Part shown: piece by piece, positions 1,772 through 57,350 of the stretch
Position numbering within the stretch: the stretch's first letter is position 1
How the letters are laid out: the number at the start of each line of letters is the position of its first letter
Source of the DNA: Nitrospiraceae bacterium
GTDB lineage: Bacteria; Nitrospirota; Nitrospiria; Nitrospirales; Nitrospiraceae
Reading direction: 5' to 3'
NCBI GenBank assembly: GCA_041748925.1
Contig: JBGTCI010000002.1
Span: forward strand, 20,086-84,085
Length of the DNA stretch: 64,000 nucleotides
The notes under the pieces: model-generated
The model's database searches: none
The model's input: only the letters and a program-made list of their open reading frames with translations
What the model was told of the DNA's origin: nothing
Program-made: the position numbers and the translations under genes

Positions 1772-2955
1772 ATCCCCTGAAACAACATCCGATTGTCACG
1801 CTCGGGGTAATCATTTTCTTTGCAATCTCAGCGCTCGTCGTATTTCGCCTCAGCAGCGGCGCGAAGACCGATATTCGCAAAGCCCGCGTCATCACCGTCG
1901 CCACTGTGGCGCCGGTGAAGCAGGACATGGACATTCGGCTCACCTATACCGCCGACATCACCCCCAACCAATCAGTCAATCTGTTCTCACGGGTTGACGG
2001 CTACATCGCCAAAATCTACGTCGAAAAAGGCGACCTGGTCAAAGCCAACCAGCTTCTGATCGAGATCGATCACACGGATTATCAGCATGCCGTCCACCAG
2101 GCCAAGGCAAACCTGGCTGCAGCCAGAGCGAGAGTCGCGCAGCAGGACGCCAGTGTCCGCAACACCACCCTCACGCTCAATCGGATGCAAGCCTTGATCA
2201 AAGACCAGTTTGTCTCGCAGCAGGATCTGGATAACGCCCAGGTCGCGTACGACGCGGCTGCGGCTGCGCTCGACTCACTCCGCGCGCAGGTCCAGCAGAT
2301 GGAGGTCGCCTTGGCACAGGCCGAGACGAACCTGGCCTACTCGTATATCCGTGCGCCCTTCGCGGGCTACGTAGCCGAGCGCAACCTCGACCTCGGCTCC
2401 TATGTGAGCGGGGCAACCGCCGGCACTTCTACCATCTCGCGCGGGATTCTCACCCTCCATGAGATCCAGACGGTTCGTATTCTGATCGAGGTCGTTGAAA
2501 AAGACGTTCCGCTCATCCATGTGGGTCAAAAGGCGGAAGTTCGCGCCGAGGCCTATCCAGATCGCGCTTTCGAGGGCACGGTCACCCGCGTCGTCCAGGC
2601 ACTGAACCGAGCCACCCGCACGATGACGATCGAGGTGGATCTCCTCAACAAAGATCGTGTGTTGAAAGGCGGCATGTTCGCCAGGGTAGAGATCTTGGTC
2701 GGCACCCATCGAAACGCGATTCAGGTCCCCATCGACGCCGTGAGTCGATTAGAAGACTCCCAATATGTCTACATTGTTCGTGAAGGAAAGGCTCAACGGG
2801 TTCAGGTGGACATCGGAGCCCGCGACGAAAACCGGGTGGAGATCACCAAGGGATTGGACGGATCGGAACAGGTGATCGTCTCCGGAAAGGACCTCGTGCA
2901 CGACGGCGCCCCCGTGCAGACGCAGTCGATGGATGCCGTAAAAGATGAGAAGTAA
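1768..2955 (+). CDS. Efflux RND transporter periplasmic adaptor subunit (MFP/HlyD family)
   Basis: 395 aa with an N-terminal TM helix, a coiled-coil rich in A/Q/L, and lipoyl and beta-barrel segments (IRAPFAGYV). Positioned between a TetR and an RND permease gene. Confidence 0.9.
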   Translation: MNPLKQHPIVTLGVIIFFAISALVVFRLSSGAKTDIRKARVITVATVAPVKQDMDIRLTYTADITPNQSVNLFSRVDGYIAKIYVEKGDLVKANQLLIEIDHTDYQHAVHQAKANLAAARARVAQQDASVRNTTLTLNRMQALIKDQFVSQQDLDNAQVAYDAAAAALDSLRAQVQQMEVALAQAETNLAYSYIRAPFAGYVAERNLDLGSYVSGATAGTSTISRGILTLHEIQTVRILIEVVEKDVPLIHVGQKAEVRAEAYPDRAFEGTVTRVVQALNRATRTMTIEVDLLNKDRVLKGGMFARVEILVGTHRNAIQVPIDAVSRLEDSQYVYIVREGKAQRVQVDIGARDENRVEITKGLDGSEQVIVSGKDLVHDGAPVQTQSMDAVKDEK

Positions 2956-3059
2956 AAAGTGAAACGTGATCTAAAACCACCCTGCCATCCTCCACGTCCC
3001 AACTCATTCCCTGAAGTCTTACGTTTCACATTTCACTTTTCACATTTAACCTCTTCATC
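2938..3059 (+). repeat. Heptamer-arm hairpin (GTGAAA/TTTCAC type) spanning the MFP stop to the RND start
   Basis: GTGAAACGT (about 2959-2968) pairs perfectly with ACGTTTCAC (about 3022-3030). GATGAGAAG, the last MFP codons, pairs with CCTCTTCATC immediately 5' of ATG 3060. The right arm is TTTCAC-type 7-nt repeats. Confidence 0.7.
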
Positions 3060-6000
3060 ATGTGGCTGACCCTTCTCGCACTTCGCAACCGCATCGGCAT
3101 CCTGATGCTGTCCCTGGCTATGATGATTTTGGGCGGCACCTCCGTGCAGCGGCTACCCGTCGATCTCTTTCCGCAGATTCAAGTGCCCGTCGCCTTCGTC
3201 GGCGTCATCTATAAAGGCGCGCCGCCGCTCGACATCGAACAGAGTGTCGTCTATCCCATCGAGAAAGCCGTCAGTTCTGCCTCGAACGTCGAGCATGTCG
3301 AGTCGTTCGCAAAGCAAGGCATCGGCGCGGTGCAGATCTGGTTCAACTGGGGCGCGGACATCAACGTTGGCCAGATGGAGGTGATGCAACGCGTCACCCA
3401 AATTCTCAATAGCCTCCCGCCGGGCATTGGGCAACCCTTCATCGTTAAGTTCGACGTCTCCAATATCCCCGTCTCCCTCGTCACCGTCTCCAGCGACGAC
3501 CTCGATGAACGGGCTCTGTACGACCTGGCCTCGAACACGATCGCTCCGCAGATCGAACAGATCGCCAACGTCGCCGCTGCCACCGTGGAAGGCGGGAAGA
3601 TCCGCCAGATCAATATCAACCTCGATCCGGCACTCCTGAACGCCCGAAGCCTCTCGATCCTCGATGTCGTCAACTCCGTGAAGGCGGCCAACCTCATTCT
3701 CCCCTCGGGTGACATCAAAGCCGGCAATCTGGACTACAATGTCTTCACCAACAATCAGTTCCGCGCGGTCGACCCGATTCAAGACGTGATTGTGAAGATC
3801 AACGCACAGGGCAGCCCTGTGCGTGTACGAGATGTCGGGACGGTGACCGATTCGTCTGACATTCAGACCAACATCGTCAGAACGGACGGGGCCAGAGCCG
3901 TGTACTTACGCGTCAATAAACAACCCATCGCCAACACCGTCGCGGTGGTGGATGCGCTGCGCAAGACCTTGCCGAACTTGGTGGGCCTTCCTCCCAGCGT
4001 AAAGGTCGGGATTTCCTTCGACCAATCGGTCTATATCCGCCAATCGATCAGCAACCTCATCGAACAAGCCTTGCACGGATCGCTGTTGGCCGCGTTGGTC
4101 ATCTTGATTTTTCTCCGTAGTGTGACGAGTACACTGATTATTTCCGTCGCCATTCCTCTCTCGATCATGGTGACGTTCATCGTGCTGTACTTCTCCGGCC
4201 AGACCTTGAACGTGTTCACGCTGGGAGGACTGGCACTCGGGATCGGCCGGCTCGTCGACGATTCCATTGTGGAACTCGAGAACATTCAACGACATCTCAA
4301 CACCTCGTCCCGTCGCTGGGAGGCGATCCTGGAAGCGGCCCGCGAGGTGGCGATGCCCATTCTTGCGTCGACGGTCACTACAGTGGTCGTCTTTCTCCCG
4401 ATTTTCTTCGTCGCCGGAATTGCTCGCTTGCTTCTAATTCCCCTAACCATCACGATTGCGATCTCACTGTTTACCTCCTTTTTCGTCTCCCGCACGGTGA
4501 CTCCGGCGCTCTGCTACAAATTCCTCAGGCCGGAGCAGGAGTCTCATCGTTCAATGCCGGCATGGTTCAAGCGCCTGATGGATTGGAGCCGTGAACGGTA
4601 CGAATCGTTGGACAAAGGCTACGAGGAATCGCTCCGCTGGGTCTTGGCCCATCGCTGGCGCTTCATCGCCGGCATTCTGCTCCTCTTCGCCGCGTCGCTC
4701 GCGCTGGCGCCCAAGATCGGTACGGAGTTTCTGCCGGTGTCGGACGAAAGCCAGTTCCGCATCGTTCTGCGCGGACCGGTCGGTCAGCGAGTGGAGAAAA
4801 CTGAGCAGCAGGTGGCCGAGGTCGAACGGGCGCTGCGAGCACAGATCCCTGCCAATGAGTTGGAAACCATCGTGTCCAGTACCGGCGTGTTGGCTCAGGG
4901 CCGCTCCTCTCTGTTCAATTCGAACACCGGCCCCCATACGTCGGTCATCTCCGTCCATCTCGTCACGCCGGACAAACGGACGAGAAACCAAGTGCAAATC
5001 ATGAACGACGTGCGGCCCAAGGTCTTACAGCTCTTTCCGGGTGTCGCGATGTCGTTCGATCCGGGCGGGATCATCAAACGAATCACCAGCTTTGGGTCGC
5101 AGAAGTCCGTCGACGTGGAGATCTACGGCTACGATTTAGAGCATGCGCGCGGGGTCATCCGGCAGGTCGAAAGCATGATGCACCAAATACCAGGCCTGGC
5201 CGACATCGAAGTCAGCCGCGAGGAGAACTATCCCGAGGTCAACGTGGTGGTGGATCGCGAGAAGGCCGCTCTCCTTGGTATCAGTGAAACGAACGTCGCC
5301 ACCGCCGTGCTCTACTCACTCAACGGCAACGGCCCAACCGACCCCATCATCTACACCGACCCTCAAAACGGGAACGAATACTTCATCAGTGTCTGGCTCG
5401 CGGAAGAACACCGAAAGAGTCTCACAGACATCGAGAACATCGTGTTGACCACGCGAGCCGGAGAACCAGTCCTCCTCAAGAACGTCGCTTCACTCAAGCT
5501 CAATGCCGGCCCGGTAAAAATCGACCGCAAGTACTTTCAGCGGGTGGTCCATCTGACCGCCAACCCTGTAGACCGTGACCTCGGCGCCGTCGCCGCCGAC
5601 CTGGAAGCAGGCTTAGCCAAGATCCAGCTCCCCACCGGCTTCAGTATCCGGTTAGCCGGCCAGATTCAACAACAGCGAGAAACCTTTGAGGGCCTGCTGT
5701 TTGCCACAGTCTTGGCGCTGGTGCTCGTGTACATGGTGATGGCGGCTCAGTTCAAATCGCTGATCGACCCCTTCGTCATCATGTTTTCAGTCCCGATGGG
5801 CTTCCCTGGCGTGATCCTGATCCTTTTTCTGACCGATACCACTCTCTCCACCACATCGATGATGGGCATCATCATGATGCTGGGCATCGTGGTCTCAAAC
5901 GGCGTGCTCCTGGTGGATTATACGAACATCCTACGCCGGCGAGGTCGAGAGTTACACGACGCGGCCATCACTGCTGCGCGGACGCGCCTCCGGCCCATAC

Positions 6001-6239
6001 TGATGACCTCTCTCGCCACCGTCCTGGGGTTGCTCCCCATGGCCATCGGGTGGGGCACCGGCGGCGAAACCAACGCCCCGTTGGCGCGCACGGTCGTCGG
6101 AGGGCTCAGCTTCTCGACGATCCTCACGCTCTTTCTCGTCCCCACGATTTATGTGATGTTGGAAGAACGGTTCCCGCGCCATGCGGACAAGACCCCAGAG
6201 GATGTCGACTGGGTGCCGGCAGAACCAGCTGCTCGATAG
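3060..6239 (+). CDS. Efflux RND transporter permease subunit (AcrB/HAE family)
   Basis: 1059 aa with a 12-TM architecture and two large periplasmic loops. Conserved RND segments present (GLALGIGRLVDDSIVELENI). No outer-membrane factor gene follows. Confidence 0.95.
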   Translation: MWLTLLALRNRIGILMLSLAMMILGGTSVQRLPVDLFPQIQVPVAFVGVIYKGAPPLDIEQSVVYPIEKAVSSASNVEHVESFAKQGIGAVQIWFNWGADINVGQMEVMQRVTQILNSLPPGIGQPFIVKFDVSNIPVSLVTVSSDDLDERALYDLASNTIAPQIEQIANVAAATVEGGKIRQININLDPALLNARSLSILDVVNSVKAANLILPSGDIKAGNLDYNVFTNNQFRAVDPIQDVIVKINAQGSPVRVRDVGTVTDSSDIQTNIVRTDGARAVYLRVNKQPIANTVAVVDALRKTLPNLVGLPPSVKVGISFDQSVYIRQSISNLIEQALHGSLLAALVILIFLRSVTSTLIISVAIPLSIMVTFIVLYFSGQTLNVFTLGGLALGIGRLVDDSIVELENIQRHLNTSSRRWEAILEAAREVAMPILASTVTTVVVFLPIFFVAGIARLLLIPLTITIAISLFTSFFVSRTVTPALCYKFLRPEQESHRSMPAWFKRLMDWSRERYESLDKGYEESLRWVLAHRWRFIAGILLLFAASLALAPKIGTEFLPVSDESQFRIVLRGPVGQRVEKTEQQVAEVERALRAQIPANELETIVSSTGVLAQGRSSLFNSNTGPHTSVISVHLVTPDKRTRNQVQIMNDVRPKVLQLFPGVAMSFDPGGIIKRITSFGSQKSVDVEIYGYDLEHARGVIRQVESMMHQIPGLADIEVSREENYPEVNVVVDREKAALLGISETNVATAVLYSLNGNGPTDPIIYTDPQNGNEYFISVWLAEEHRKSLTDIENIVLTTRAGEPVLLKNVASLKLNAGPVKIDRKYFQRVVHLTANPVDRDLGAVAADLEAGLAKIQLPTGFSIRLAGQIQQQRETFEGLLFATVLALVLVYMVMAAQFKSLIDPFVIMFSVPMGFPGVILILFLTDTTLSTTSMMGIIMMLGIVVSNGVLLVDYTNILRRRGRELHDAAITAARTRLRPILMTSLATVLGLLPMAIGWGTGGETNAPLARTVVGGLSFSTILTLFLVPTIYVMLEERFPRHADKTPEDVDWVPAEPAAR

Positions 6240-6365
6240 CAGGATGCTGAAAAATCCCGCCAGCGGCGTTCTCACCTCGAAAGCATCCTCAACGTAGCCC
6301 AGAGGCTACGCCTCCGGTGCTTTCATCGGCTGCGGCCTTGCTGATCGGTCTTTTTGAGCATCCTG
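6240..6365 (+). repeat. P125 palindromic element, copy A
   Basis: CAGGATGCTGAAAAA...TTTTTGAGCATCCTG, 126 nt. Starts immediately after the RND TAG stop (6237-6239). Centre is CCTCAACGTAGCC-loop-GGCTACGCCTCCGG. Confidence 0.9.
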
Positions 6366-7731: not shown

Positions 7732-7821
7732 GGTCTATCTGGTCTATTCGGTCTGTCTCGTCTGTTTGGTGGAACAAAACTAACCAGATGAACCAGACAG
7801 ACTAGATAGACCGGATAGACC
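7732..7821. repeat. N9 nonamer-arm hairpin, copy 1
   Basis: Left arm GGTCTATCT GGTCTATTC GGTCTGTCT CGTCTGTTT, a short loop, then a right arm that is the imperfect reverse complement (...CAGACAGAC TAGATAGAC CGGATAGACC). Fills the gap between convergent stops at 7726 and 7837. Confidence 0.9.
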
Positions 7822-7836
7822 AAACGAACAAGACCG

Positions 7837-13828: not shown

Positions 13829-13963
13829 GGTTGTCTGTCTGGTCCATCTGGTCTGTCTGGTTTCTCTGATTACTTCGTCGAGTTAGTCTGGTTTAATCCG
13901 ATAAACTACCCAATTAAACGAGATAGACCAGATAGACCGAACAGACCAGATAGACCAAATAAA
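13829..13963. repeat. N9 nonamer-arm hairpin, copy 2
   Basis: Left arm GGTTGTCTGTCTGGTCCATCTGGTCTGTCTGG, about 55 nt of central sequence, right arm AGATAGACCAGATAGACCGAACAGACCAGATAGACC. Right end lies 9 nt from stop 13973 (minus-strand gene). Confidence 0.85.
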
Positions 13964-14924: not shown

Positions 14925-15815
14925 ATGAACATTAAGGACTACCTCGAACAGAAGCGGGACGATGTGGATCGGTTCCTCGATTCTGTCATGCCCAGCACCA
15001 CCACGCCTCCTACCACGCTTCACGAAAGCATACGGTATAGTCTCATGGCGGGAGGGAAGCGAGTCCGCCCGATCCTGGCCATCGCCGCGGCAGAAGCGGT
15101 GGGGCAGCCCGCGCCGGGGTTGATGCCGATCGCCTGTTCGCTCGAACTGATCCACACCTACTCCTTGATTCACGATGACTTGCCCGCGATGGATAACGAC
15201 GATTTCCGTCGCGGAAGGCCGACAAATCACAAGGTCTACGGCGACGCGATGGCGATCCTGGCCGGCGACGCCTTGCTGACGATGGCATTCGATCTGTGCA
15301 CCCGCCCAGACCTGATGAAAGGCTGCGACCCGGCACGCCAAGTGCGGCTGATTCAAGAACTGGCGTACGGCTCAGGGAATGTGGGGATGGTGGGCGGTCA
15401 GGTTCTCGATATCCAGGCTGAACATAAAGACATCGATCTCGCGACGCTCCAGAACATCCACAAGCATAAGACCGGCATGTTGATCCGCGCAGCGGTGCGA
15501 ATGGGCGCCATTGCCGGGGGCGCACAGGATCGCCAACTGGACGACCTCACGAGTTATGCCCAGGATGTCGGACTGGCTTTTCAGATTGCGGATGACGTGC
15601 TCAACGTGACCGGAACGCGCGAGGAACTGGGCAAGAATCCCAATACCGACGCGGAGCGAGGGAAAAAAACCTACCCGACATTCTACGGAGCCGAGGGAGC
15701 CAGAAAACTGGCGGACGATTGTGTGGCCCGCGCGATCGCACGACTCTCCTCGTTCGGTCCGGCCGCCGACCCGCTCTGTGAGCTGGCCCGCTACATCACG
15801 TCGCGGAAGAACTGA
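14925..15815 (+). CDS. ispA: Polyprenyl (farnesyl/geranylgeranyl) diphosphate synthase
   Basis: 296 aa. First Asp-rich motif LIHTYSLIHDDLPAMDNDDFRRGRPTNH, with the same YSLIHDD context as E. coli IspA. Second motif FQIADDVLN. Confidence 0.85.
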   Translation: MNIKDYLEQKRDDVDRFLDSVMPSTTTPPTTLHESIRYSLMAGGKRVRPILAIAAAEAVGQPAPGLMPIACSLELIHTYSLIHDDLPAMDNDDFRRGRPTNHKVYGDAMAILAGDALLTMAFDLCTRPDLMKGCDPARQVRLIQELAYGSGNVGMVGGQVLDIQAEHKDIDLATLQNIHKHKTGMLIRAAVRMGAIAGGAQDRQLDDLTSYAQDVGLAFQIADDVLNVTGTREELGKNPNTDAERGKKTYPTFYGAEGARKLADDCVARAIARLSSFGPAADPLCELARYITSRKN

Positions 15816-15822: not shown

Positions 15823-15921
15823 TCGTGAAACGTATCTCGTGAAGCGCATGATCGCTCATCTTGACAACCAATCCCAATCCCAACGTTTCACGCTTCACGT
15901 TTCACGCTTCACGTCTTCATC
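15823..15921 (+). repeat. Heptamer-arm hairpin (GTGAAA/TTTCAC type) between ispA and the HpnA-like gene
   Basis: Left arm CGTGAAACGTATCTCGTGAAGCG. Right arm CGTTTCACGCTTCACGTTTCACGCTTCACG, followed by TCTTCATC, which directly abuts ATG 15922. Confidence 0.75.
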
Positions 15922-16905
15922 ATGAAGGTCCTCGTCACTGGCGCAACCGGATTTGTCGGCGGTGCGGTGGTACGCGCGCTGGTCCACCGCGGCATCGACG
16001 TCCGCGTTCTGGCCCGTGCCGGAGCAGACCTCCGGAATCTTGAAGGACTGACCGTCGAACGGGTCGAAGGCGATCTGCGCGATCAAACCTCGTTGCGCAA
16101 ATCGCTCGCCGGCTGCCGACAGCTCTACCATATCGCGGCGCACTATGCGCTCTGGGCCAAAGATCCGGCGATCTTTTATGACGTCAACGTTACCGGCACA
16201 AAGAATCTCCTGGAAGCGGCCCGCGAGGCCGGCACCGAACGGATCGTCTACTGCAGCACCATTGGCGCGATCGGCCTTCCGCCCGGCGGAGGGCTCGGCA
16301 CGGAAGAAACGCCCGTCTCACTCGAACAGATGGCCGGCCACTACAAACGGTCAAAGTACCTGGCCGAGCAAGAAGTCTTCACGCTCGCAAAGGCAGGGCT
16401 GCCGGTCGTCATCGTGAACCCCAGTGCCCCGGTCGGCGCCAGCGACGTGAAACCGACCCCGACGGGGCAGGTCATCGTAGATTTCATGAAGGGCCGCATG
16501 CCGGCCTATATCGAAACCGGGATGAACATCGTGGACGTGGATGACGTCGCCGCCGGCCATCTGCTCGCGATGGAGAAGGGCCGGATCGGCGAGCGATACA
16601 TCCTGGGGAATAAGAACTTGATGTTGCGCGAAGTGTTTGAGATCTTGAGCCGCCTGACCGGCATCAACGCGCCCTCGATCAAGTTGCCGCGATTGGCAAT
16701 TTTGCCTCTGGCCTATCTCAATCTCTGTATGGCGAACATCACAGGGCACCCACCGCGTATTCCACTGGAAGGGGTGAAAATGGCCAAATACAAGATGCAC
16801 TATGATTGCAGCAAAGCGATCAGAGAGCTCGGCATCCCACAAACACCGCCGGAAGTGGCGTTAGAGAAAGCGGTGAGGTGGTTCCGAGATCATGGCTATG
16901 CATAA
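15922..16905 (+). CDS. NAD-dependent epimerase/dehydratase, HpnA-like (hopanoid-associated sugar epimerase family)
   Basis: 327 aa. Rossmann motif VTGATGFVGGAVV. Overall resemblance to the HpnA family (LRNLEGL.VE.VEGDL.D..SL, Y..SK catalytic pair) from memory. Confidence 0.7.
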   Translation: MKVLVTGATGFVGGAVVRALVHRGIDVRVLARAGADLRNLEGLTVERVEGDLRDQTSLRKSLAGCRQLYHIAAHYALWAKDPAIFYDVNVTGTKNLLEAAREAGTERIVYCSTIGAIGLPPGGGLGTEETPVSLEQMAGHYKRSKYLAEQEVFTLAKAGLPVVIVNPSAPVGASDVKPTPTGQVIVDFMKGRMPAYIETGMNIVDVDDVAAGHLLAMEKGRIGERYILGNKNLMLREVFEILSRLTGINAPSIKLPRLAILPLAYLNLCMANITGHPPRIPLEGVKMAKYKMHYDCSKAIRELGIPQTPPEVALEKAVRWFRDHGYA

Positions 16906-16940
16906 CTGCCGGTCATTCGACGAGTTGTGTGTTTTGAATT

Positions 16941-17780
16941 GTGAGTGTTGAGTTTTCGTCAACTCAATTGATGGATACGCTTGCCCTATTCTTAAAAACG
17001 ATTTTGTTCCGTCCCTACGTCTTCGTCTTCCTTGCAGCCTTTCTCTTCGCCGCGATCATGCTGATCGGCTGGCCGCGAACTTGGCGCTTCTGGCTGATTA
17101 GCTGGGCCACGGCTTTCGTCTGCGAATTTTCGTCTACGCGCAACGGCATTCCCTTCGGGTGGTACCACTACAATGGTTCGACCGTGGGCCAGGAACTCTA
17201 CTTCTCCAACGTCCCATTCATGGACTCGATCTCGTTCAGTTTTCTGCTGTATGCCGCCTACTGCGTCGCCCTCTGTCTCCTTCTTCCAATCAAGGGATCA
17301 TCTGCTTCCACTCAGCCGATGCTCACACCGCTGCATCTTCATGTGGGCGCGCGAACGAATTGGTCTGTGCTCTTCCTGACAGCCTTCTTGTTTGCCTTTA
17401 TCGATATGGTGATCGATCCCGTCGCACTACGTGGCGACCGCTGGTTCTTGGGGAAGATTTACTATTATCCCGACCCGGGCCTTCACTTCGGCGTGCCGTT
17501 GGCCAACTACGTCGGGTGGGCGGTCGTGGGACTCATTTCTCTCGCTATCTACTTCCCGCTCGAACGCCGACTGCCCGCGCTCTCGCTGCCTCCTTCGGTC
17601 ACGCCTCGACTTCTGTTAGGTGTCGGCCTTTACTATGGCGTCCTGGTCTTTAACCTGAGCGTCACGTTTTGGATCGGCGAATCGTTCATGGGAATGAGCG
17701 GTCTGCTGATGCACCTCCCCGTCATCGCGCTGCTGATGTTTCGCGTTGCACGACCATGTGTCATCTCCCACTCGGGCTAA
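16941..17780 (+). CDS. Polytopic membrane protein, carotenoid-biosynthesis-protein (DUF422)-like
   Basis: 279 aa with about 7 TM helices. GTG start, with an alternative ATG at 16971. The family call is tentative and rests on motifs (GWYHY, ANYVGWAVVG) and isoprenoid gene neighbours. Confidence 0.6.
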   Translation: MSVEFSSTQLMDTLALFLKTILFRPYVFVFLAAFLFAAIMLIGWPRTWRFWLISWATAFVCEFSSTRNGIPFGWYHYNGSTVGQELYFSNVPFMDSISFSFLLYAAYCVALCLLLPIKGSSASTQPMLTPLHLHVGARTNWSVLFLTAFLFAFIDMVIDPVALRGDRWFLGKIYYYPDPGLHFGVPLANYVGWAVVGLISLAIYFPLERRLPALSLPPSVTPRLLLGVGLYYGVLVFNLSVTFWIGESFMGMSGLLMHLPVIALLMFRVARPCVISHSG

Positions 17781-19366: not shown

Positions 19367-19493
19367 CTGTCTGTCTCGTCTATCCGGTCTGTCTGGTCTA
19401 TTCAGTCTGTTCGGTCTATCTTGTGTGTTTCTTTCAACGAAACTGACCAGAGCACCAGATAGACTAGATAGACAAGACAAACCAGATAGACCC
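19367..19493. repeat. N9 nonamer-arm hairpin, copy 4
   Basis: CTGTCTGTCTCGTCTATCCGGTCTGTCTGGTCTATTCAGTCTGTTCGGTCTATC ... CCAGATAGACTAGATAGACAAGACAAACCAGATAGACC. Begins 8 nt after stop 19359. Confidence 0.9.
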
Positions 19494-22780: not shown

Positions 22781-22794
22781 TTGGCTTCCCTATA

Positions 22795-22916
22795 GACCGC
22801 TCAAAATGATCTTCCAACAAGGCCACAGGCGAAGAAAGCACCGGAGGCGTACCCGCTGGGGTACGTTGAGGATGCTTTCGAGACGAGAACGCAGTTGGAA
22901 GTCATTTTCAGCGGTC
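22795..22916 (-). repeat. P125 element, copy B
   Basis: GACCGCTCAAAATGA...GGAGGCGTACCC-gctg-GGGTACGTTGAGGAT...TCATTTTCAGCGGTC. Its outer stem differs from other copies but remains self-complementary. Ends 2 nt from the TBDR stop (TAG TAG ACCGCTGAAAA on the minus strand). Confidence 0.9.
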
Positions 22917-22918
22917 TA

Positions 22919-27762: not shown

Positions 27763-27868
27763 GTCTGTCTCGTCTATCTGGTCTATTCGGTCTGTCTCGT
27801 CTGTTTGGTTGAACGAAACAAACCAGATGAACCAGAAAGACCAGATAGACCGAACAGACCAGACAGAC
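27763..27868. repeat. N9 nonamer-arm hairpin, copy 6
   Basis: Shares the exact 30-mer GGTCTATTCGGTCTGTCTCGTCTGTTTGGT with copy 1. Right arm CCAGATGAACCAGAAAGACCAGATAGACCGAACAGACCAGACAGAC. Lies between the copA stop and the htrA start. Confidence 0.9.
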
Positions 27869-30455: not shown

Positions 30456-30467
30456 CTCTCCTCAGAA

Positions 30468-30536
30468 GGAGTGCTGAGTGTAACGTTCTGGGTCCTGAGT
30501 GTTCGGACTCACCGTAACGCAATACTCAGCACTCAG
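30468..30536 (-). repeat. Heptamer-arm hairpin (GAGTGCT type) between the dsbA-like gene and copA
   Basis: GGAGTGCTGAGTGTAACGTT...CGTAACGCAATACTCAGCACTCAG. On the transcript it lies between the DsbA-like stop and the copA SD (GGAGA). Confidence 0.75.
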
Positions 30537-33799: not shown

Positions 33800-33886
33800 A
33801 TAGGGACCAATGCTTGTGACTTTAACCTTAGATGTAACTGAACATTATGAACCAACGCGGGCCATGACAACAGAAAGCCATTCTCG

Positions 33887-34011
33887 CAGGATGCTCAAAA
33901 TGTCATCCCAGCAAGGCCGCAGGGAGCTCGGCGACTGAAGCGTACCCTTGCGGTACGTTGCAGGGAGACGGGCGACTGAGAACGATGCTGGGGGACATTT
34001 TCAGCATCCTG
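33887..34011 (-). repeat. P125 element, copy C
   Basis: CAGGATGCTCAAAATG...GAAGCGTACCC-ttgc-GGTACGTTGCAGG...CATTTTCAGCATCCTG, 125 nt. Directly abuts stop 34012 (TAG|CAGGATGCTGAAAA on the minus strand). Confidence 0.9.
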
Positions 34012-34776
34012 CTAAGAGCGTCGATTCGAACCAGTGATCGCCTGCTTAAACACCGCGCGGAGGCCGAAGTAGGCGACGGAATCTTTGAGGTTGGAATAGA
34101 GACGCTTGAAGGTTCCCATGTCCGGGTTGGTAACATATTCCATCGTCAAGGCGATCCGTTCTTCTCCCTCGCCAAGGGGAGTCACCGAATGCCACAGCTT
34201 ATCTCCATTGAAAATCACGAGATCGCCCGGTTGTGTAATGAGTTCCAGATGCCGCGGGGCTTTTACAGGATCATCCTTAAACAGCTCGCAGACCAGTTTG
34301 CATTGTGTCGACTTATCAACGAGCCCCATCAGAATGGTGTAGCGAGCCCCTTTATAGTAGGACGTGTCATAGTGAAACCCGATATGATCCCCCGGCTCCG
34401 TATAGTAATAGAGCGCACAGGAGTGGGGATCGTTCTCAGGGCATTGACTGAGTTTGGCCTGCACCAGTCGGCTCAAGAAATCGATAAAGGCGCCGGATCG
34501 ATAGAGATCGAGAAAGCGCGGGGCCTTCTCCATTACCGTGTAGTAGCTCACGCTCCCGCCCTTTTTATGGCCGGGAATGTAGTTGCGATTCAGCTCGCTC
34601 TTCACCCCTTGTGCCTGCGGGACGAGATGCTCTTCCACCACCGATCGTGAGAGAAACTGTGGGATAACTAGGAACTCGTTCTGGTCCCAATACTCACGGG
34701 AGAGTCGGTCGAAATCCAACCGCTTGACTGCGTCTTCAACCGCTTCAACCAAAGAGCCGACCATGGCTTGATTCAT
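34012..34776 (-). CDS. Fe(II)/2-oxoglutarate-dependent oxygenase superfamily protein
   Basis: 254 aa with an HxD...H facial triad candidate (GFHYD ... LWHSV) in a jelly-roll-like context. Exact family uncertain. Confidence 0.6.
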   Translation of the reverse strand: MNQAMVGSLVEAVEDAVKRLDFDRLSREYWDQNEFLVIPQFLSRSVVEEHLVPQAQGVKSELNRNYIPGHKKGGSVSYYTVMEKAPRFLDLYRSGAFIDFLSRLVQAKLSQCPENDPHSCALYYYTEPGDHIGFHYDTSYYKGARYTILMGLVDKSTQCKLVCELFKDDPVKAPRHLELITQPGDLVIFNGDKLWHSVTPLGEGEERIALTMEYVTNPDMGTFKRLYSNLKDSVAYFGLRAVFKQAITGSNRRS

Positions 34777-34803
34777 ACCTTCACCTATTCATCAATCGTC
34801 CGG

Positions 34804-34823
34804 CAGGATGCTGAAAAAGTCCC
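34804..34823 (+). repeat. P125 terminal fragment
   Basis: CAGGATGCTGAAAAAGTCCC only. No matching right end nearby. Confidence 0.6.
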
Positions 34824-34832: not shown

Positions 34833-34922
34833 CTGTGAAAAGTAAAATGTAAAAGGTGAAACGTAGCACCGTCAAATGCTCTTCCTCTGAAACCTTTCAC
34901 GCTTTACCTTTCACTTATCACG
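34833..34922 (-). repeat. Heptamer-arm hairpin (GTGAAA/TTTCAC type) between lolA and the oxygenase gene
   Basis: Plus strand reads CTGTGAAAAGTAAAATGTAAAAGGTGAAACGT ... AACCTTTCACGCTTTACCTTTCACTTATCAC. On the minus-strand transcript the GTGAAA arm comes first, as in the two plus-strand copies. Confidence 0.75.
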
Positions 34923-34938: not shown

Positions 34939-35628
34939 TCACTGCGGAGCGCTGAACACCGGAGCCTTTACGACTTCCACATCCGGCGGCAATTTGAGAT
35001 CGAAGAGTGAGTCGCCAAGACCGGTGTTGGGTTGAAGCGACGAAAATTCAAAGTTCGAGACATTGCCGCTGACTTCATGGAGAGAGAGAGTGCGAATGAA
35101 ATAGGTTTTCGGAAACACTTCAAGCACGATTCGTTGTAACGATCTCCCCGCCTCACCTTCACGCGACTTAGGCAGGAGCGTGAGTAACCGGATTCCTCCC
35201 ACGCCACGCCCCTTCCCGGGCGTCGGCTCAATGTCGAACGACTCCTCCAACTTCGCCGCCCCCAGTAACAGCTCCAACGGGGCCTTGGAGGCTGCCATTT
35301 GTGTCAGCTTCCCCACCAGTACTTGCTTGTGCTCCGGTACATACACTTTAACATCATCTCGATTGACATAGATGTCCTCGACTGAAGGATCGAGATAATT
35401 CCACCGCAACCGGCCTGGCTTCTTGATATAGACCTTCCCCGAGGACGCAATAGACCGTTCGAAACCCTCGATCACGGTCTTCTGCGTAAAATCTGCCTGG
35501 AGATCTTTCGTTTTCTCATACCGCGCCTGGAGCTGCTTGACCACCTCCCGCACTTCCTGCAACGCTTTCTCATCACTCTCTTCGGCGCCAAGAAACGACA
35601 CAGGTAAGAGGACCCACAGACACACCAT
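34939..35628 (-). CDS. lolA: Outer-membrane lipoprotein carrier protein LolA
   Basis: Start set at MVCLWVLLPVSFLG (35628). ADFTQ......F.R...S.G.VYIKKPG.LRW.Y..P is typical of LolA. The track's upstream extension translates repeat T5. Confidence 0.85.
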   Translation of the reverse strand: MVCLWVLLPVSFLGAEESDEKALQEVREVVKQLQARYEKTKDLQADFTQKTVIEGFERSIASSGKVYIKKPGRLRWNYLDPSVEDIYVNRDDVKVYVPEHKQVLVGKLTQMAASKAPLELLLGAAKLEESFDIEPTPGKGRGVGGIRLLTLLPKSREGEAGRSLQRIVLEVFPKTYFIRTLSLHEVSGNVSNFEFSSLQPNTGLGDSLFDLKLPPDVEVVKAPVFSAPQ

Positions 35629-35667
35629 TGCAAGTCCCACTCTGGGCAGACCAGATGGGGTGGCTAA

Positions 35668-35730
35668 GGTACGCGCTATTCTGCGCGTCCAGCGAGGGCC
35701 TTCGGAGGCCGCGCGATGTGTGAGCACCGG
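35668..35730. repeat. T-family element, copy T5 (short)
   Basis: GGTACGCGCTATTCTGCGCGTCCAGCGAGGGCCTTCGGAGGCCGCGCGATGTGTGAGCAC, in the ftsK-lolA spacer. Confidence 0.75.
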
Positions 35731-35756
35731 GAGCGCCTTCGTCACCCCATGCCCCC

Positions 35757-38168
35757 TCACGCCTCCTCTGCTCCCACCGGCCCGGTCCGCCCGACGACCT
35801 CTCTCCGTCCATCCCGGCCTGCCGCGCCCACAAGGCCCTCTGCCTCCATTTGCTCGATCATCCGAGCCGCTCGAGGATAGCCCACCCGCAACCGGCGCTG
35901 AATCAGAGAAGCAGAAGCCGAACCGGTGGACAGGACCAACTCTTTCGCCTGCTCGTATACTTCGCCCAGCGACTCATCCTCTTTCGCCCCTTCCTGTTTC
36001 AGCGCGATCTGCAACTCCTGATTGTAGGCGGGAGCAGCTTGGTCTTTCACGAACTCGACTACGCGGCGGACGTCGTCATCCGACACAAACGACCCGTGCA
36101 GTCGCATGACACGTCCCGTCCCCGAAGCCATATAGAGCATGTCTCCACGACCAAGGAGCGCCTCCGCACCGTTGGCATCCAGAATGGTGCGAGAATCGGT
36201 CTTCGACGACACCTGAAAGGCAATGCGGGCCGGAAAGTTCGCCTTGATCAAGCCGGTCAACACATCAACCGACGGGCGCTGCGTCGCCAGCACGAGATGG
36301 ATACCTGATGCGCGGGCCATCTGCGCCAAGCGCGCAATCTTGTCTTCCACTTCTTTCGGGGCCACCATCATCAAATCCGCCAATTCATCGATCATCACGA
36401 CGATATAGGGCAAGGGCTCCGGCGGAGTCGCCGGCGGTGTGAACGATCCGGGGCTGCCATCCGGAACCGCAGTCTCTCCGGCAGAGAGCCGGTCCTCTTC
36501 GGACAGAAACTGAATGGGCAATTCCGGCTGGTCTAACTTGGCCACCGATTCTGCTTCCAGCACACCCTGCTTTCCGGCGACTTTTCGATTATAGGTATCG
36601 ATGTTTCGCACGCCTGCCTCAGCGAGCAATTTGTAGCGTCGCTCCATTTCAGCCACTACCCAACCGAGCCCTCGCGCCGCCGACTTGGGATCGGTGATGA
36701 CCGGTCGTAAGAGGTGAGGGATGCCGTCGTACGTTTGAAATTCGAGCATCTTGGGGTCGATCAGGAGTAACTTGACTTCATCGGGGCGCGCCGAAAACAG
36801 CAAGCTCAGGAGCATCGTATTGAGGCTGACACTTTTCCCGGCCCCTGTGGCGCCGGCGACCAGCAAGTGCGGCATCGTTTTCAGATCGGCGATCAGAGGG
36901 GTTCCGAAAATATCCTTCCCCAAGGCCAAGCTGAGCTTCGATCTGGCGCGGGAAAATGCTTCGCTCGTCATGACTTCCTTCATCGACACCGTCTCGCGAT
37001 AGAGGTTCGGCACCTCGATGCCTACCACAGATTTTCCCGGAATCGGCGCGACGATCCGGAGACTGATCGCTTTCAGTGCCAATGCCAGATCATCGGCAAG
37101 GTTCACAATGCGCGCGACTTTCGTTCCCGGCGCCGGCTCAAACTCGTACATCGTCACGACTGGCCCGGGACGAACTTCCGTCACCTTCCCTGCGATGCCA
37201 AAACTGAGCAGAGCGCGGGTCAGCACATCGGATTGCGCCTTGATTTCTTCTTCCGTCACACGCCCCAGGGGGCCCGACGGTTCGCTCAGGAGCACAGCCG
37301 GATCCGGCAAGATATAGTCCCCCGCCTTTGCTTGAGCAGCCACGACTTGTTGGTCCGGCTCGGGCTCGATCGGTTCAGCCGGTTCGGGAATCGGTCGTCG
37401 TGCCGGCTGAATGACCGGCCAATCCAATTCCGGCTCTGCAGACGCCTCCGGAAGCGCCTCCTCAATCACCGCACGGATGGATGCAGTGGATTTCTGTCTG
37501 GATTTCCGTGGCGACTCAGGAACTTCTTCTTCCACCGGCCGGTCCGGAATCAACGTACGCGCCCTGTTGAACACCCTATTGCCCCAACCGGGAATCCGTC
37601 GACCAATCTCCGACAGAGAGATGGGCGCCGTGAAGAGGAGCGAGACTAGTAGTCCCGCGATGATCAGAATGTGGGCGCCGGTACTTGCAAAATAGGCTCG
37701 CAAACTCTCGGCCAACACTTGCCCGAAGAAGCCTCCCGCCATCCCTCGGTAAATCAAACCGCTAGAGACGGTCGGCACCGCCGAGATTTCGAGATGAAAC
37801 AGACCGCTGAGAAACAGCAATGCCGCCAGCGAAGCGCCGGCGTTCCGCAGACGGATCGATAGATCGCTCTGAGTGAAACAGCGGACACCCAAGAGGCCTA
37901 GGAGAATGGGAAACAGGTATGCAGCCCCGCCGATCGACCAGAACAAGGTGGACGCGAAGAACGCGCCGACCGATCCGATGAGGTTTCTGGGCGGAGGCGT
38001 CGAAGCCGCTCCGGCCTTCATCTCCCCTGGGACAAAGGACAACAAGCTCAGCAGCGTCAAGAGCGCCAACGCGATCAGGACGACTCCGATCACTTCTCGC
38101 TTGATGTGTGAGGGGGGGGCAGCGGCGCCGCGGGTCTCGCCCCGCTTGGCCGAACTGGTGACAGCCAT
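35757..38168 (-). CDS. ftsK: DNA translocase FtsK
   Basis: 803 aa. N-terminal TM helices, Pro/Glu-rich linker, motor domain with Walker A (GATGAGKSV), and a C-terminal winged-helix gamma domain (SASLIQRRLRVGYPRAARMIEQME). Confidence 0.95.
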   Translation of the reverse strand: MAVTSSAKRGETRGAAAPPSHIKREVIGVVLIALALLTLLSLLSFVPGEMKAGAASTPPPRNLIGSVGAFFASTLFWSIGGAAYLFPILLGLLGVRCFTQSDLSIRLRNAGASLAALLFLSGLFHLEISAVPTVSSGLIYRGMAGGFFGQVLAESLRAYFASTGAHILIIAGLLVSLLFTAPISLSEIGRRIPGWGNRVFNRARTLIPDRPVEEEVPESPRKSRQKSTASIRAVIEEALPEASAEPELDWPVIQPARRPIPEPAEPIEPEPDQQVVAAQAKAGDYILPDPAVLLSEPSGPLGRVTEEEIKAQSDVLTRALLSFGIAGKVTEVRPGPVVTMYEFEPAPGTKVARIVNLADDLALALKAISLRIVAPIPGKSVVGIEVPNLYRETVSMKEVMTSEAFSRARSKLSLALGKDIFGTPLIADLKTMPHLLVAGATGAGKSVSLNTMLLSLLFSARPDEVKLLLIDPKMLEFQTYDGIPHLLRPVITDPKSAARGLGWVVAEMERRYKLLAEAGVRNIDTYNRKVAGKQGVLEAESVAKLDQPELPIQFLSEEDRLSAGETAVPDGSPGSFTPPATPPEPLPYIVVMIDELADLMMVAPKEVEDKIARLAQMARASGIHLVLATQRPSVDVLTGLIKANFPARIAFQVSSKTDSRTILDANGAEALLGRGDMLYMASGTGRVMRLHGSFVSDDDVRRVVEFVKDQAAPAYNQELQIALKQEGAKEDESLGEVYEQAKELVLSTGSASASLIQRRLRVGYPRAARMIEQMEAEGLVGAAGRDGRREVVGRTGPVGAEEA

Positions 38169-39333: not shown

Positions 39334-39429
39334 CTGTCTATCTGGTCTGTCTGGTCTATTTGGTCTATCTGGTTCGGTCCAAACTAGGAAACCAGACAGA
39401 CGAGATAGACCAGACAGACCAGATAGACC
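39334..39429. repeat. N9 nonamer-arm hairpin, copy 7
   Basis: CTGTCTATCT GGTCTGTCT GGTCTATTT GGTCTATCT GGTTCGGTC - loop - CCAGACAGACGAGATAGACCAGACAGACCAGATAGACC. Ends 2 nt from the pdxA stop (39432). Confidence 0.9.
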
Positions 39430-40481: not shown

Positions 40482-40605
40482 CAGGATGCTCAAAAAGGCC
40501 GTTCAGCGCGGCCGCAGCGAGCGAAGATCGGAGGCGTACCCTCAGGGGTACGTTGAGGATCTAAGCGATGCGAGAACAAAGCTGGCGGACTTTTTCAGCA
40601 TCCTG
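40482..40605 (-). repeat. P125 element, copy D
   Basis: 124 nt. CAGGATGCTCAAAAAGG...GGAGGCGTACCC-tcag-GGGTACGTTGAGGAT...CTTTTTCAGCATCCTG. Abuts the CaCA stop (TAA|CAGGATGCTGAAAAA on the minus strand). Confidence 0.9.
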
Positions 40606-47918: not shown

Positions 47919-48007
47919 GTCGGTCGGTTGTTTTGGTTTGTTTGGTTTGTCTCGTTCATTTGGTTGAACAAAACAAACCAGAGAAACCGGATAAACCAAA
48001 TAAACCA
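47919..48007. repeat. N9-type hairpin, copy 8 (GGTTTGT variant)
   Basis: GTCGGTCGGTTGTTTTGGTTTGTTTGGTTTGTCTCGTTCATTTGGTT - loop - AACAAACCAGAGAAACCGGATAAACCAAATAAACC. Ends 3 nt from stop 48011. Confidence 0.85.
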
Positions 48008-52772: not shown

Positions 52773-52788
52773 GGGGATAGTATCTTAG

Positions 52789-53243: not shown

Positions 53244-53257
53244 CCCCGCCTCCCCTC

Positions 53258-53286: not shown

Positions 53287-53292
53287 CTCGAT

Positions 53293-53754: not shown

Positions 53755-53757
53755 CCC

Positions 53758-54513: not shown

Positions 54514-54517
54514 GGGC

Positions 54518-54639
54518 CTGTCTATCTGGTCTATTTGGTCTATCTGTGCGATGAGCAAAAAAGACAACCTCCGGTCCGGATTACCCGATCTATCTGATCA
54601 GTCAATTCAACCAAACAAACCAGACAGACCAAATAGACC
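54518..54639. repeat. N9 nonamer-arm hairpin, copy 9 (large central insert)
   Basis: CTGTCTATCT GGTCTATTT GGTCTATCT G ... about 70 nt ... AACCAAACAAACCAGACAGACCAAATAGACC. Fills the gap between convergent stops at 54513 and 54645. Confidence 0.85.
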
Positions 54640-54644
54640 GCCTG

Positions 54645-55505: not shown

Positions 55506-55531
55506 GGTGAGACTCTCCGAAAGCCCGCCCA

Positions 55532-56311
55532 TCAGCCCATCGCCCGACGGAACACCTTGGCGCTCCCGTAAAGACAGAGGGCGTCGAATATCACCATGAC
55601 TATCACGACCATTGCGACATGAGGGAGCGCCTCGGTCCAGCCGGTGAGGATCAACGGCCTCACCGCGTCGATCGCCCAGGTCATCGGATTGAAGCGCGCC
55701 AGGAACCCCATCCACGCAGGCATCCCCGCCAAGGGCACCAAAGCCGAGCTCAAGAAAATCATTGGGAGCGACAGGAATCCCAGGACTGAAAAGAAATCGC
55801 CGTGACTCTTCACGGAAAAAGCCATCGCCATGGAAATCGCGGTGAGACCGACGCCAAAGAGCATCCCGATCATCAAGATTGCGGCGATACCTAGGAAGCC
55901 CGTCGCCGGCTGGACGCCGAACAGAAAGGCCACCCCGAGGATCACGAGTACTTGGAGCGAGGTAATCGTCATGACGAAGATGAAGCGACTCAGGATCACG
56001 GAACTACGATGGATCGGCGTGGTCATCAACCGCTCCAGAAACCCATTCTCCTTGTCGAACAACAGATCGACGCCTCCGGCGAGTCCATTGTTGAGCACCG
56101 TCATGACGACCACGCCGGCGGTCAGGAAGCTGATATAGTCTGGGGCCTGCGTCACTTGCACATCCGCGGCCCGCTGGAACAGATTGCCGAAGAAGATCAG
56201 CCAGAACAGCATCGGCTGTACGAGCGTGAACAACATACTGAATTTCTCGCGACTGAGCCGCCGAACCCATCGCATCGTCAACGCATGAATTTCCTGCCAG
56301 TACTCTTGCAT
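55532..56311 (-). CDS. ABC-2 type transporter permease
   Basis: 259 aa with 6 TM helices and ABC-2 family layout, directly downstream of the ATPase gene. Confidence 0.85.
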   Translation of the reverse strand: MQEYWQEIHALTMRWVRRLSREKFSMLFTLVQPMLFWLIFFGNLFQRAADVQVTQAPDYISFLTAGVVVMTVLNNGLAGGVDLLFDKENGFLERLMTTPIHRSSVILSRFIFVMTITSLQVLVILGVAFLFGVQPATGFLGIAAILMIGMLFGVGLTAISMAMAFSVKSHGDFFSVLGFLSLPMIFLSSALVPLAGMPAWMGFLARFNPMTWAIDAVRPLILTGWTEALPHVAMVVIVMVIFDALCLYGSAKVFRRAMG

Positions 56312-56329
56312 CCGCTTCGCTCCAGTTAC

Positions 56330-56356
56330 GAGTGCTGAGTGCTGAGTGCTGAGTAT
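56330..56356 (-). repeat. Tandem heptamer GAGTGCT x3 between the ABC ATPase and permease genes
   Basis: GAGTGCTGAGTGCTGAGTGCTGAGTAT. Same unit as the dsbA-copA hairpin. A partial complement (GAGACTGTTGAGTGATG on the transcript) lies in the last ATPase codons. Confidence 0.7.
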
Positions 56357-56375
56357 TCAGACGGGATATCCAACA

Positions 56376-57350
56376 TCACTCAACAGTCTCTTTCGGCAAT
56401 TCGTCTTTAATCGATCGCCCCGTATGGGCGATGAACACGTCGTCCAGCCGCGGGCGGTGGTACTCAATAAACTCCAGTTGGCAATCTAATCGATTGGCGG
56501 ACTCGAGGATTGCTGGCAGGGCTTTTTCGGGCGACTCGACCCGGATATCCAGGCCGGTCGGCGTCGCCTTGACCGCTCGCATCGCGGGTTGTCTCGTCAA
56601 CGCAGCCACCAACGTAGAAATCTTACTCTGGTCCTTTAAGGTCAACGACACAATATCGCCGCCCAGCCCGACCTTCAGCTCAGCTGGCGACCCGAGCGTC
56701 TTGATCTTTCCCACGTCGATAATGGCCAACCGATCGCAGAGCTGATCCGCCTCATCCAAATAATTCGTCGTCATCACGATCGTCATGCCGCGCGCCTTCA
56801 ACATCCGCACGTAGTCCCAAATCCTGAGCCGGCTCTGCACATCCAAGCCCAACGTCGGCTCGTCGAGGAACAATATCTTGGGGTCCGGCAGAAGACCGCA
56901 GGCAATGTCGAGCTTCCGCTTCATCCCCCCGGAGTACGTTTTCGCCGGGCGATCGGCAGCCTCTTCCAGTTCCACGAGCTTCAGCAACTCGGCAATGCGT
57001 TTCGCGGCTTCGGCCTTCGGCAAGTGGTACAGTGCGCCGAGCAGTTCGAGGTGTTCCCGACCGGTGAGAAAGCGATCGATGGCCCGTTCTTGAGGCACGT
57101 AGCCGATGAGTTGCCGGACGACATCCGCCTCGCGCACCGTATCGTGGCCTAATACGCTGGCCGTGCCTGACGTCGGCGTCAGCAGCGTGATGAGCGTCCG
57201 GAGCGTGGTGCTTTTCCCCGCCCCGTTCGGCCCCAGCAGACCGAAAATCTCGCCTGAATAGACCTCAAACGACAGATCGGAGACGGCCGTATGGCCATCA
57301 TAGGATTTCGTGAGCCGAGATACCTGGATCGCGATTGCGCGATCCATCAA
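56376..57350 (-). CDS. ABC transporter ATP-binding protein (DrrA/ABC-2 exporter type)
   Basis: 324 aa. Walker A GPNGAGKST, signature YSGGMKRKL, Walker B ILFLDEPT. Confidence 0.9.
   Translation of the reverse strand: MMDRAIAIQVSRLTKSYDGHTAVSDLSFEVYSGEIFGLLGPNGAGKSTTLRTLITLLTPTSGTASVLGHDTVREADVVRQLIGYVPQERAIDRFLTGREHLELLGALYHLPKAEAAKRIAELLKLVELEEAADRPAKTYSGGMKRKLDIACGLLPDPKILFLDEPTLGLDVQSRLRIWDYVRMLKARGMTIVMTTNYLDEADQLCDRLAIIDVGKIKTLGSPAELKVGLGGDIVSLTLKDQSKISTLVAALTRQPAMRAVKATPTGLDIRVESPEKALPAILESANRLDCQLEFIEYHRPRLDDVFIAHTGRSIKDELPKETVE

Follow-up and report, generated by a model that had tools for sequence, protein, structure and literature searches.

Five junctions between co-directional genes in a 64,000-nt stretch of a Nitrospira genome (contig JBGTCI010000002.1 of assembly GCA_041748925.1, positions 20,086 to 84,085; hereafter the window) carry inserts built from tandem 7-nt units. 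An initial annotation, made from the letters alone, described these inserts as heptamer-periodic hairpins that bring the stop codon of one gene next to the start codon of the following gene and that could couple or gate its translation. The genome is a metagenome-assembled genome (MAG) of 3.77 Mb in 77 contigs (56% GC, 96% complete). Nitrospira are key nitrite oxidisers and comammox organisms. The host is assigned to this genus, and the HpnA-like protein encoded in the window has its best matches in Nitrospira/Nitrospiraceae MAGs (83-89% identity). All five gene pairs are co-directional and encode the products first proposed for them. These names are confirmed by Pfam for all genes except the ABC ATPase, whose name is that of the initial annotation and whose open reading frame (ORF) was not itself put through Pfam. 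The genes and the repeat arms between them, including one Shine-Dalgarno (SD) mini-stem, are as follows.

1768-2955 and 3060-6239, + strand: MFP gene followed by RND gene (Pfam)
2938-2969, + strand: 5' arm at the MFP-RND junction, GTAAAAG ATGAGAA GTAAAAA GTGAAAC GTGA, period 7
3021-3059, + strand: 3' arm at the MFP-RND junction, (TTTCACN)n decaying to CTCTTCATC; RND ATG at 3060
14925-15815 and 15922-16905, + strand: ispA-type polyprenyl synthase gene followed by NAD-epimerase/HpnA-like gene (Pfam)
15824-15846, + strand: 5' arm at the ispA-hpnA junction, CGTGAAA CGTATCT CGTGAAG CG
15883-15921, + strand: 3' array at the ispA-hpnA junction, (CGYTTCA)x5, period 7, 5.1 copies
34939-35760 and 34012-34776, - strand: lolA followed by 2OG oxygenase gene (Pfam)
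34833-34922, - strand: heptamer hairpin, 16 nt past the lolA stop (34939)
34803-34822, - strand: half of a P125-type terminal repeat, CTTTTTCAGCATCCTG on the gene strand, following the lolA hairpin
30548-31198 and 27915-30455, - strand: DsbA-like gene followed by copA (Pfam)
30468-30536, - strand: GAGTGCT-type hairpin between the dsbA-like stop (30548) and the copA ATG (30455)
30456-30471, - strand: CTCC-TTCTGA-GGAG mini-stem around the copA SD (GAGGAGAG), from sequence comparison
56376-57350 and 55532-56311, - strand: ABC ATPase ORF followed by ABC-2 permease gene (Pfam for the permease)
56330-56354, - strand: perfect (AGCACTC)x3.6 array forming one arm, period 7

Inverted, stem-forming arrays of approximately 7-nt tandem units with variable copy number are present at four of the five loci (2938-3055, 15824-15919, 34833-34922 and 30468-30536), as the initial annotation had it. 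The fifth, at the ABC junction, is one-armed, with no significant partner for its array. The 5' arm at the MFP-RND junction covers the last five codons of the MFP gene together with its TAA stop (2953-2955) and pairs with the 3' arm over 30 nt (77-80% complementary). The 5' arm at the ispA-hpnA junction lies 8 nt past the ispA stop (15813-15815) and pairs over 23 nt (78%); the last degenerate unit of the 3' array, GTCTTCATC, adjoins the ATG at 15922. The spacers at these two junctions measure 104 nt and 106 nt, as originally given. The lolA hairpin, whose loop GCTCTTCCTCTGAAACCTTTC is common to other genomic copies, lies 57 nt 5' of the oxygenase ATG (34776), and the oxygenase gene has its own purine-rich SD-like run. 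The arms at the dsbA-copA junction pair over 19 nt (84%). At the ABC junction the ATPase stop is at 56376 and the permease ATG at 56311, with GGAG 8 nt before the ATG. RNA structure prediction, which the initial annotation had proposed as a check, gives less support than first supposed, with folding z-scores of -3.1/-3.8 for lolA, -3.2 for copA, -2.33 for hpnA, -1.25 for RND and -0.2 for the ABC junction. No Rfam match was found in the window.

The RND and HpnA-like genes share a start context, with CTTCATC before both ATGs. In both cases the ATG is the first start codon past an in-frame stop, and orthologues give the same N-termini. Neither gene has a GGAG-type SD, whereas SD-like purine runs are present at the copA, oxygenase and ABC permease starts. 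The absence of an SD does not set the two genes apart from most others, as had been supposed: a core SD (GGAG, GAGG or AGGA at -18 to -4) is found at only 43% of unambiguous starts genome-wide, compared with 11.5% of random positions. A census of CTTCATCATG finds 34 genomic occurrences, at gene starts only for RND and HpnA-like, and a start motif used throughout the genome was rejected. The sequence is the degenerate YTTCAY unit with which the 3' array ends, and orthologues retain just YCATC-ATG of the context. The pairing proposed for the RND start, GATGAGAAG with CCTCTTCATC, consists of seven Watson-Crick pairs, one G.U pair and one mismatch, and is absent from the minimum-energy fold. A leaderless promoter within the 3' arm was also rejected, as by eye no suitably spaced -10-like hexamer precedes either ATG and no promoter match was found at the loci. 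C is favoured before starts throughout the genome (42% at -1 and 37% at -2).

The five loci are ordinary members of a fold-back class, one of them one-armed. Tandem Repeats Finder, applied to the whole genome, reveals a large excess of period-7 (244) and period-9 (413) arrays. With an array counted as paired when it has a reverse-complement partner within 170 nt, 97 of the 268 merged period-7 arrays are partnered, compared with 7 in a control sequence that was reversed but not complemented. For period 9 the corresponding numbers are 150 and 9, and there are almost no partnered arrays of periods 6, 8, 10 and 11. After merging, at least 74 heptamer hairpins and 101 nonamer hairpins are obtained, and a large number of additional "solo" arrays each form half of a weaker hairpin. 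The heptamer stems are approximately 20-30 bp long and often only 75-85% paired. The main units (GTGAAAC, GTGAAGC and GAGTGCT) contain no runs of G, with a minority of the GGGGTAA type, and the unit families have neither a common tag nor a conserved binding motif. In 400-kb samples, 22 of 40 period-7 arrays are paired in a same-genus genome and 0 of 16 in a genome of a neighbouring family. Most loops (53/67) occur just once in the genome, which means that the majority of hairpins are not pasted copies of a mobile element; the exceptions form three small subfamilies, including the lolA-type loop within P125-type ends.

The position of these hairpins relative to genes is distinctive. Heptamer hairpins lie between 58 co-directional, 6 divergent and 5 convergent gene pairs, against a background in which 68.5% of intergenic regions longer than 40 nt are co-directional. 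At co-directional junctions the median distance from stop to array is 5 nt for heptamers and 13.5 nt for nonamers, and that from array to start is 22 nt and 76.5 nt, respectively. Defined as beginning no more than 15 nt from the upstream stop and ending no more than 25 nt from the downstream start, flush hairpins make up 29/59 of the heptamer class and 6/64 of the nonamer class, and the stop codon lies at the edge of or within the array in 20/59 heptamer hairpins. As nonamers are also frequent at convergent pairs and are less flush, bridging between co-directional genes truly characterises the heptamer class. Pfam places flush heptamer hairpins in the core operon junctions nuoA-nuoB, nuoJ-nuoK, guaB-guaA, hisA-hisF and exbD-tonB; inspection of translations adds nuoCD-E, nuoL-M, purL-F, a kinase-regulator pair and MFP-RND. 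The genes of such operons have to be expressed together. The stop-to-start geometry of the initial annotation is thus both real and specific. The dedicated coupling or gating device that it was thought to represent is unsupported, because stem mismatches show no G.U bias, covariation is nil, SD-less starts are not enriched after hairpins, the ABC insert is mostly absent from congeners and the cargo carried by related elements looks selfish. These points are taken up below.

The arms also have a polarity. It had been remarked that the purine-rich arm is transcribed first in all three GTGAAA-type copies; this is correct, but the same is seen on whichever strand of a palindrome is read. What is biased is the polarity of the family. 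Stop trinucleotides are concentrated in the 5' arm of 56 heptamer hairpins and in the 3' arm of 11, and the nonamer class has the opposite polarity (11 in the 5' arm and 56 in the 3' arm). As GTGAAAC-type units contain TGA or TAA, a period-7 array often provides the stop itself, and stops can fall in all three frames because the period is not divisible by 3. The MFP gene is an example: its last codons and stop are array sequence, and its C-terminal tail varies among congeners. An SD is present at 8 of the 29 starts that follow flush hairpins and at 33-43% of starts in the genome, which gives no enrichment of SD-less starts.

Orthologous spacers from approximately 20 congeners retain a heptamer hairpin, with differing repeat units (folding z-scores for these spacers are based on mononucleotide shuffles). 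Between MFP and RND a hairpin is found in all genomes of the genus whose spacer could be read. Its units are of at least five types, 16/18 spacers fold at z<-2, and the loops are recognisably orthologous across several genomes. In an outgroup genus this junction is a short spacer with AAGGAGG; in a genome of an outgroup genus (L099), it is filled by a G/C-rich palindrome, CCCTCCCCCCTCGAGGGGGAGGG, without heptamer periodicity. Between ispA and hpnA, approximately 14 other Nitrospira genomes have heptamer arrays spanning stop to ATG (units including GTGAAAC, GTGAGGC, GTGACNN, GGGGTAA/CCCCTCA and GCTATAC), and none has an SD; pairing is often weak or one-sided, with 6/17 folding at z<-2. The dsbA-copA spacer is long in 20 of 22 genomes, nearly all of these with a heptamer hairpin of the GAGTTCT, GTGATGA or GGGGTAA family (15/20 at z<-2). 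The CTCC-N6-GGAG mini-stem around the copA SD shows little or no variation among ten congeners whose hairpins are of the GAGTTCT type. At the ABC junction most genomes have a classic TAAGGAGAGACAGTG junction with a stop-overlapping SD and no insert. Eight genomes have heptamer inserts there, of at least five unrelated unit types, which indicates that the insert was gained at this junction repeatedly and independently. The lolA-oxygenase spacer is plain or armed with heptamer, nonamer or other repeats in different genomes, often beside a P125-type terminal repeat. A short SD-bearing spacer was probably the ancestral state, to judge from the outgroup at MFP-RND and from most congeners at the ABC junction. 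At the level of sequence, the hairpins are shown to keep their position throughout the genus as their units change in sequence and in copy number. Genome-specific unit repertoires, which would imply a trans factor, are not claimed, as 6-mer sharing within and between genomes is 0.049 and 0.039, respectively (permutation p = 0.12).

A functional RNA helix tolerates G.U mismatches but not A.C mismatches. In sense orientation, the stem mismatches of the heptamer hairpins in this genome comprise 70 G.U and 59 A.C (p 0.38), those of the nonamer hairpins 134 and 120 (p 0.41) and those of the orthologous sets 71 and 73 (p 0.93). Summed over the genome and the orthologues, heptamer stems have 141 G.U and 132 A.C mismatches, with no G.U excess. 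The search for covariation that the initial annotation had suggested is negative column by column within one unit family: RNAalifold finds 2 of 15 pairs compensatory in ten same-family dsbA-copA spacers, with a covariation energy of approximately 0. Because the mismatches are strand-symmetric, the complementarity seems to be kept by a process acting on the DNA rather than through selection for pairing in the sense RNA. Judged from the compared spacers, the complete replacement of both arms from one species to another is concerted evolution and not classical covariation.

A minority of elements elsewhere in the genome carry genes. There are six matches to PF05635 (S23p, 23S-rRNA intervening-sequence protein), three with internal stops, at the following positions.

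C48:81481-81944
C28:92800-93230
C7:7170-7600
C29:41700-42330
C53:21450-21800
C53:57780-58330

All six lie at gene junctions, squeezed in between a stop and a start, and are bracketed by inverted tandem arrays with 7-, 8-, 9- or 14-nt units of the same unit families. In at least five cases the PF05635 gene has the orientation of the gene that follows, the ATG of which is a few nt past the 3' array. At C48:81481-81944, for example, the upstream gene ends within CGTGAAACGTGA and the next ATG is 4 nt past TTTCACGG. In congeners 8 of 9 examined PF05635 genes are bracketed likewise. PF05635 is present in 18/18 same-genus genomes, in 0/8 genomes of two neighbouring families and in 2/4 of a third family. 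One PF05635 cassette is orthologous in three genomes, and one cassette of a congener corresponds to a plain 45-nt spacer in this genome. At C13:91300-91800, a DUF559 remnant that retains N- and C-terminal parts but has an internal deletion is enclosed by TCAGCNN heptamer arms and, within these, flanked by a second palindrome, CCTCCCCTTTGTAAGGGGAGG. In three congeners a PF05635 gene occupies the same TCAGCNN arms at the same junction.

Similar elements are known from other bacteria. The ORF-bearing intervening sequences (IVS) of 23S rRNA in Coxiella burnetii and Leptospira (PMC4990558) have a terminal-inverted-repeat stem, heptamers of variable copy number in the stem region, an insert that the host RNA tolerates because it folds out and a decaying small PF05635/S23p gene in the loop (found here at the six loci above and not at the five in the window). 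In Coxiella the inverted-repeat stem has variable GACAGAT heptamers and is cut by RNase III, and the S23p ORF is decaying (PMC4990558). Unlike these, the Nitrospira elements are sited at mRNA operon junctions and not in 23S helix 25 or 45, and most copies are empty. This MAG lacks an assembled 23S rRNA. The GGGAATC heptamers of Xanthomonas and GGGGAYT heptamers of Nostoc (PMC4692102), like the cyanobacterial STRR, also form arrays with many convergent inverted pairs, and are enriched between aligned and depleted between divergent ORFs, at no more than 50 bp from stops and starts. They are transcribed, and some overlap stop codons (PMC4692102); Xcc and Xac each have 70-75 inverted GGGAATC pairs per genome between aligned ORFs, overlapping stops (PMC4692102). 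Nitrospira shares the inverted heptamer pairs between aligned ORFs near stops and starts. The Xanthomonas and Nostoc repeats differ in having a single dominant unit that is G-rich and quadruplex-forming, and PMC4692102 reports no link to PF05635; the Nitrospira units, by contrast, are diverse (GTGAAAC, GTGAGGC, GAGTGCT, TCAGCCN and others) and mostly not quadruplex-prone. The TAACTGA repeats of marine Beggiatoaceae (PMC4679880) are also stop-containing heptamers located a few nt before starts where a canonical ribosome binding site is rare, and sometimes overlap the end of the upstream ORF; they are direct repeats, with one inverted case and no hairpin. REP/BIME and REPIN elements with RAYT (PMC3733652, PMC3116915) are extragenic palindromes in transcribed spacers, at operon junctions and at 3' ends. 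The Nitrospira hairpins have no GTAG/CGTC tag, their arms are tandem repeats and their loops are locus-specific, and no Y1 transposase was found. REP/RAYT identity was rejected on these grounds, as PF01797 (Y1 transposase) was not found in this 96%-complete genome and there is no common tag. A MITE-like copy-paste origin was rejected because most loops are unique. Translational coupling by RNA unfolding or reinitiation (PMC12548453) similarly involves a structure spanning the upstream end and the downstream start. The known examples are single evolved structures, whereas the Nitrospira hairpins form a repeat-built, genome-wide family.

The five loci are therefore probably best described as copies of a Nitrospira-wide class of IVS-type fold-back elements, most of them empty shells, and not as a purpose-built coupler. 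The proposed model, taken as the most economical, is that of a palindromic repeat shell that maintains itself. In each element a degenerate 7-nt unit would be repeated in two inverted arrays that enclose a loop, usually short and locus-specific (the empty shell), which in a minority of cases holds a small selfish-looking gene, either PF05635/S23p or, once, the DUF559 remnant. The arms may be kept complementary at the DNA level by slippage within an arm combined with templated correction from arm to arm, much as in quasipalindromes. The inserts would be tolerated in essential operons because they fold out of the message or are cut out of it. When the transcript folds back, the stop and the next start would stay adjacent, and termination-linked initiation could continue across the insert; RNase III may in addition cleave the stem, as it does in rRNA intervening sequences. 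Any coupling effect would thus be a condition for tolerance of the elements and not their reason to exist.

Several points weigh against this model. Descent of empty shells from full cassettes, or of cassettes from shells, is putative. No residual PF05635 similarity was found in the empty loops or orthologous spacers; at the five loci there is no PF05635 ORF in the loop, either here or in approximately 20 orthologous genomes, and none carries cargo of any kind in that set. Inserts of 70-170 nt are kept in every congener at MFP-RND and dsbA-copA despite deletion bias, which hints at selection for function. The 5' location of the stop-bearing arm (56 versus 11) and the disappearance of the SD from the RND and hpnA junctions both fit a translation-linked role. 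In addition, the MAG has approximately 7% contamination, the gene calls (3331 genes) come from our own crude codon-usage caller and the relatives compared are not mutually independent. A functional role retains some probability because the hairpin is present in every congener at two junctions, the stops are polarised to the 5' arm and the SD is lost at RND and hpnA. The shells could then be a working part of Nitrospira gene expression on which subunit balance in core operons (nuo, gua, his, pur and efflux) depends, although this is considered unlikely. A ribosome would terminate in the stop-rich 5' arm, open the stem and pass to the SD-less start at its base or, alternatively, RNase III would trim the message to a near-leaderless cistron.

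Four other explanations were weighed against the fold-back element model. RNase III is known to cut intercistronic sites in phage T7, and the hairpins may be processing sites of this kind, with the cut stems splitting operon mRNA into units of different stability and leaving a very short leader, free of structure and with no need of an SD, on the downstream cistron. The rnc gene is present in the genome, the stems are of approximately 20-30 bp, the 3' arms end 0-20 nt before the ATG and the architecture matches that of RNase III-cut IVS stems (PMC4990558). As the stems are often just 75-85% paired and their mismatches lack an RNA-strand signature, processing as the primary role is regarded as a doubtful, if reasonable, candidate. 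A dedicated translational coupler, in which the hairpin would hold the upstream stop beside an SD-less start so that the terminating ribosome melts the stem base and the start thus released is used, by that ribosome or by a fresh 30S subunit, across the spacer of approximately 100 nt, is somewhat less probable still. It would account for the flush geometry (29/59), the stops at the array edge or inside it (20/59), the siting in stoichiometric operons, the polarity that places stops in the 5' arm and the RND and hpnA starts that lack an SD genus-wide when the outgroup has AAGGAGG. Coupling by RNA unfolding also has precedents in phage f1 genes VII/IX and in rpmI-rplT at +52 nt (PMC12548453). 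Against a coupler, there is neither a bias of G.U over A.C nor column covariation. The share of SD-less starts is not raised behind the hairpins, and over half of the genes have no SD in any case. A flush position is lacking in many copies, some have a single arm or pair weakly (z<-2 is reached by 6/17 hpnA orthologues), and the ABC-junction insert is missing in most congeners. In a library screen, structure just past the stop codon is reported to have reduced coupling (PMC12548453).

The strand-symmetric mismatches, the restriction of palindromes to periods 7 and 9 and the fast turnover of units would also suit a role of the DNA itself, as cruciform or protein-binding sites (like BIME/REP for gyrase or IHF), or an origin as mutational by-products. 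This is improbable, as the preference for transcribed operon junctions and the depletion at divergent promoters point to a filter acting through the transcript or translation, and no binding motif is conserved across the unit families. Finally, hairpins located directly past stop codons recall intrinsic terminators or attenuators. There is no U-tract, a terminator scan flags none of the hairpins, they lie inside the nuo, gua, his and MFP-RND operons and the next start follows within 0-20 nt; the hairpins are thus intercistronic and very unlikely to be terminators.

Approximately 100 Nitrospira operon junctions, including those of complex I, purine and histidine genes, carry hairpins of 70-170 nt where other bacteria have a few bases. 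The class therefore bears on how tightly coupled operons tolerate large inserts, on how palindromes keep their arms matched during sequence turnover and on the purpose of heptamer repeats and of the PF05635 "intervening-sequence protein". It is also relevant to annotation, as the arrays provide stops, alter C-termini and put true starts right after long stems without an SD.

The window contains other repeats in addition to the heptamer hairpins. Members of two further families, nonamer-armed hairpins of the form (GGTCTATCT)n...(AGATAGACC)n and an approximately 125-nt palindromic family with CAGGATGCTGAAAAAG terminal repeats, are located as follows.

7732-7822: nonamer-armed hairpin
13833-13961: nonamer-armed hairpin
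19369-19491: nonamer-armed hairpin
27763-27868: nonamer-armed hairpin
39336-39429: nonamer-armed hairpin
47932-48007: nonamer-armed hairpin
54520-54639: nonamer-armed hairpin
6240-6365: approximately 125-nt palindrome
22793-22918: approximately 125-nt palindrome
33886-34012: approximately 125-nt palindrome
40482-40605: approximately 125-nt palindrome
59533-59654: approximately 125-nt palindrome

The nonamer hairpins (101 genome-wide) are close to the upstream stop, far from the next start and frequent at convergent pairs. The approximately 125-nt family has 37 full genomic copies by a strict pattern, and one of its subfamilies encloses a heptamer hairpin with a conserved loop. At 16925-16951, in the short spacer after the HpnA-like gene, there is a solo period-14 array (TTGTGAGTGTTGAA x1.9) approximately 19 nt from the HpnA-like stop and 16 nt from the next start. 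Elsewhere in the genome, a dispersed family with CGTGAAGCGT arms around GCGAGATACGAGAT is found at the following positions.

C48:11345-11417
C53:76785-76857
C64:18283-18335
C77:34158-34206
C7:23686-23761

The interiors of these copies are near-identical, and the copy on C7 is located within longer inverted ends, AGCCCGCATTATTCATGA. From its sequence, this family looks like a true mobile subfamily.

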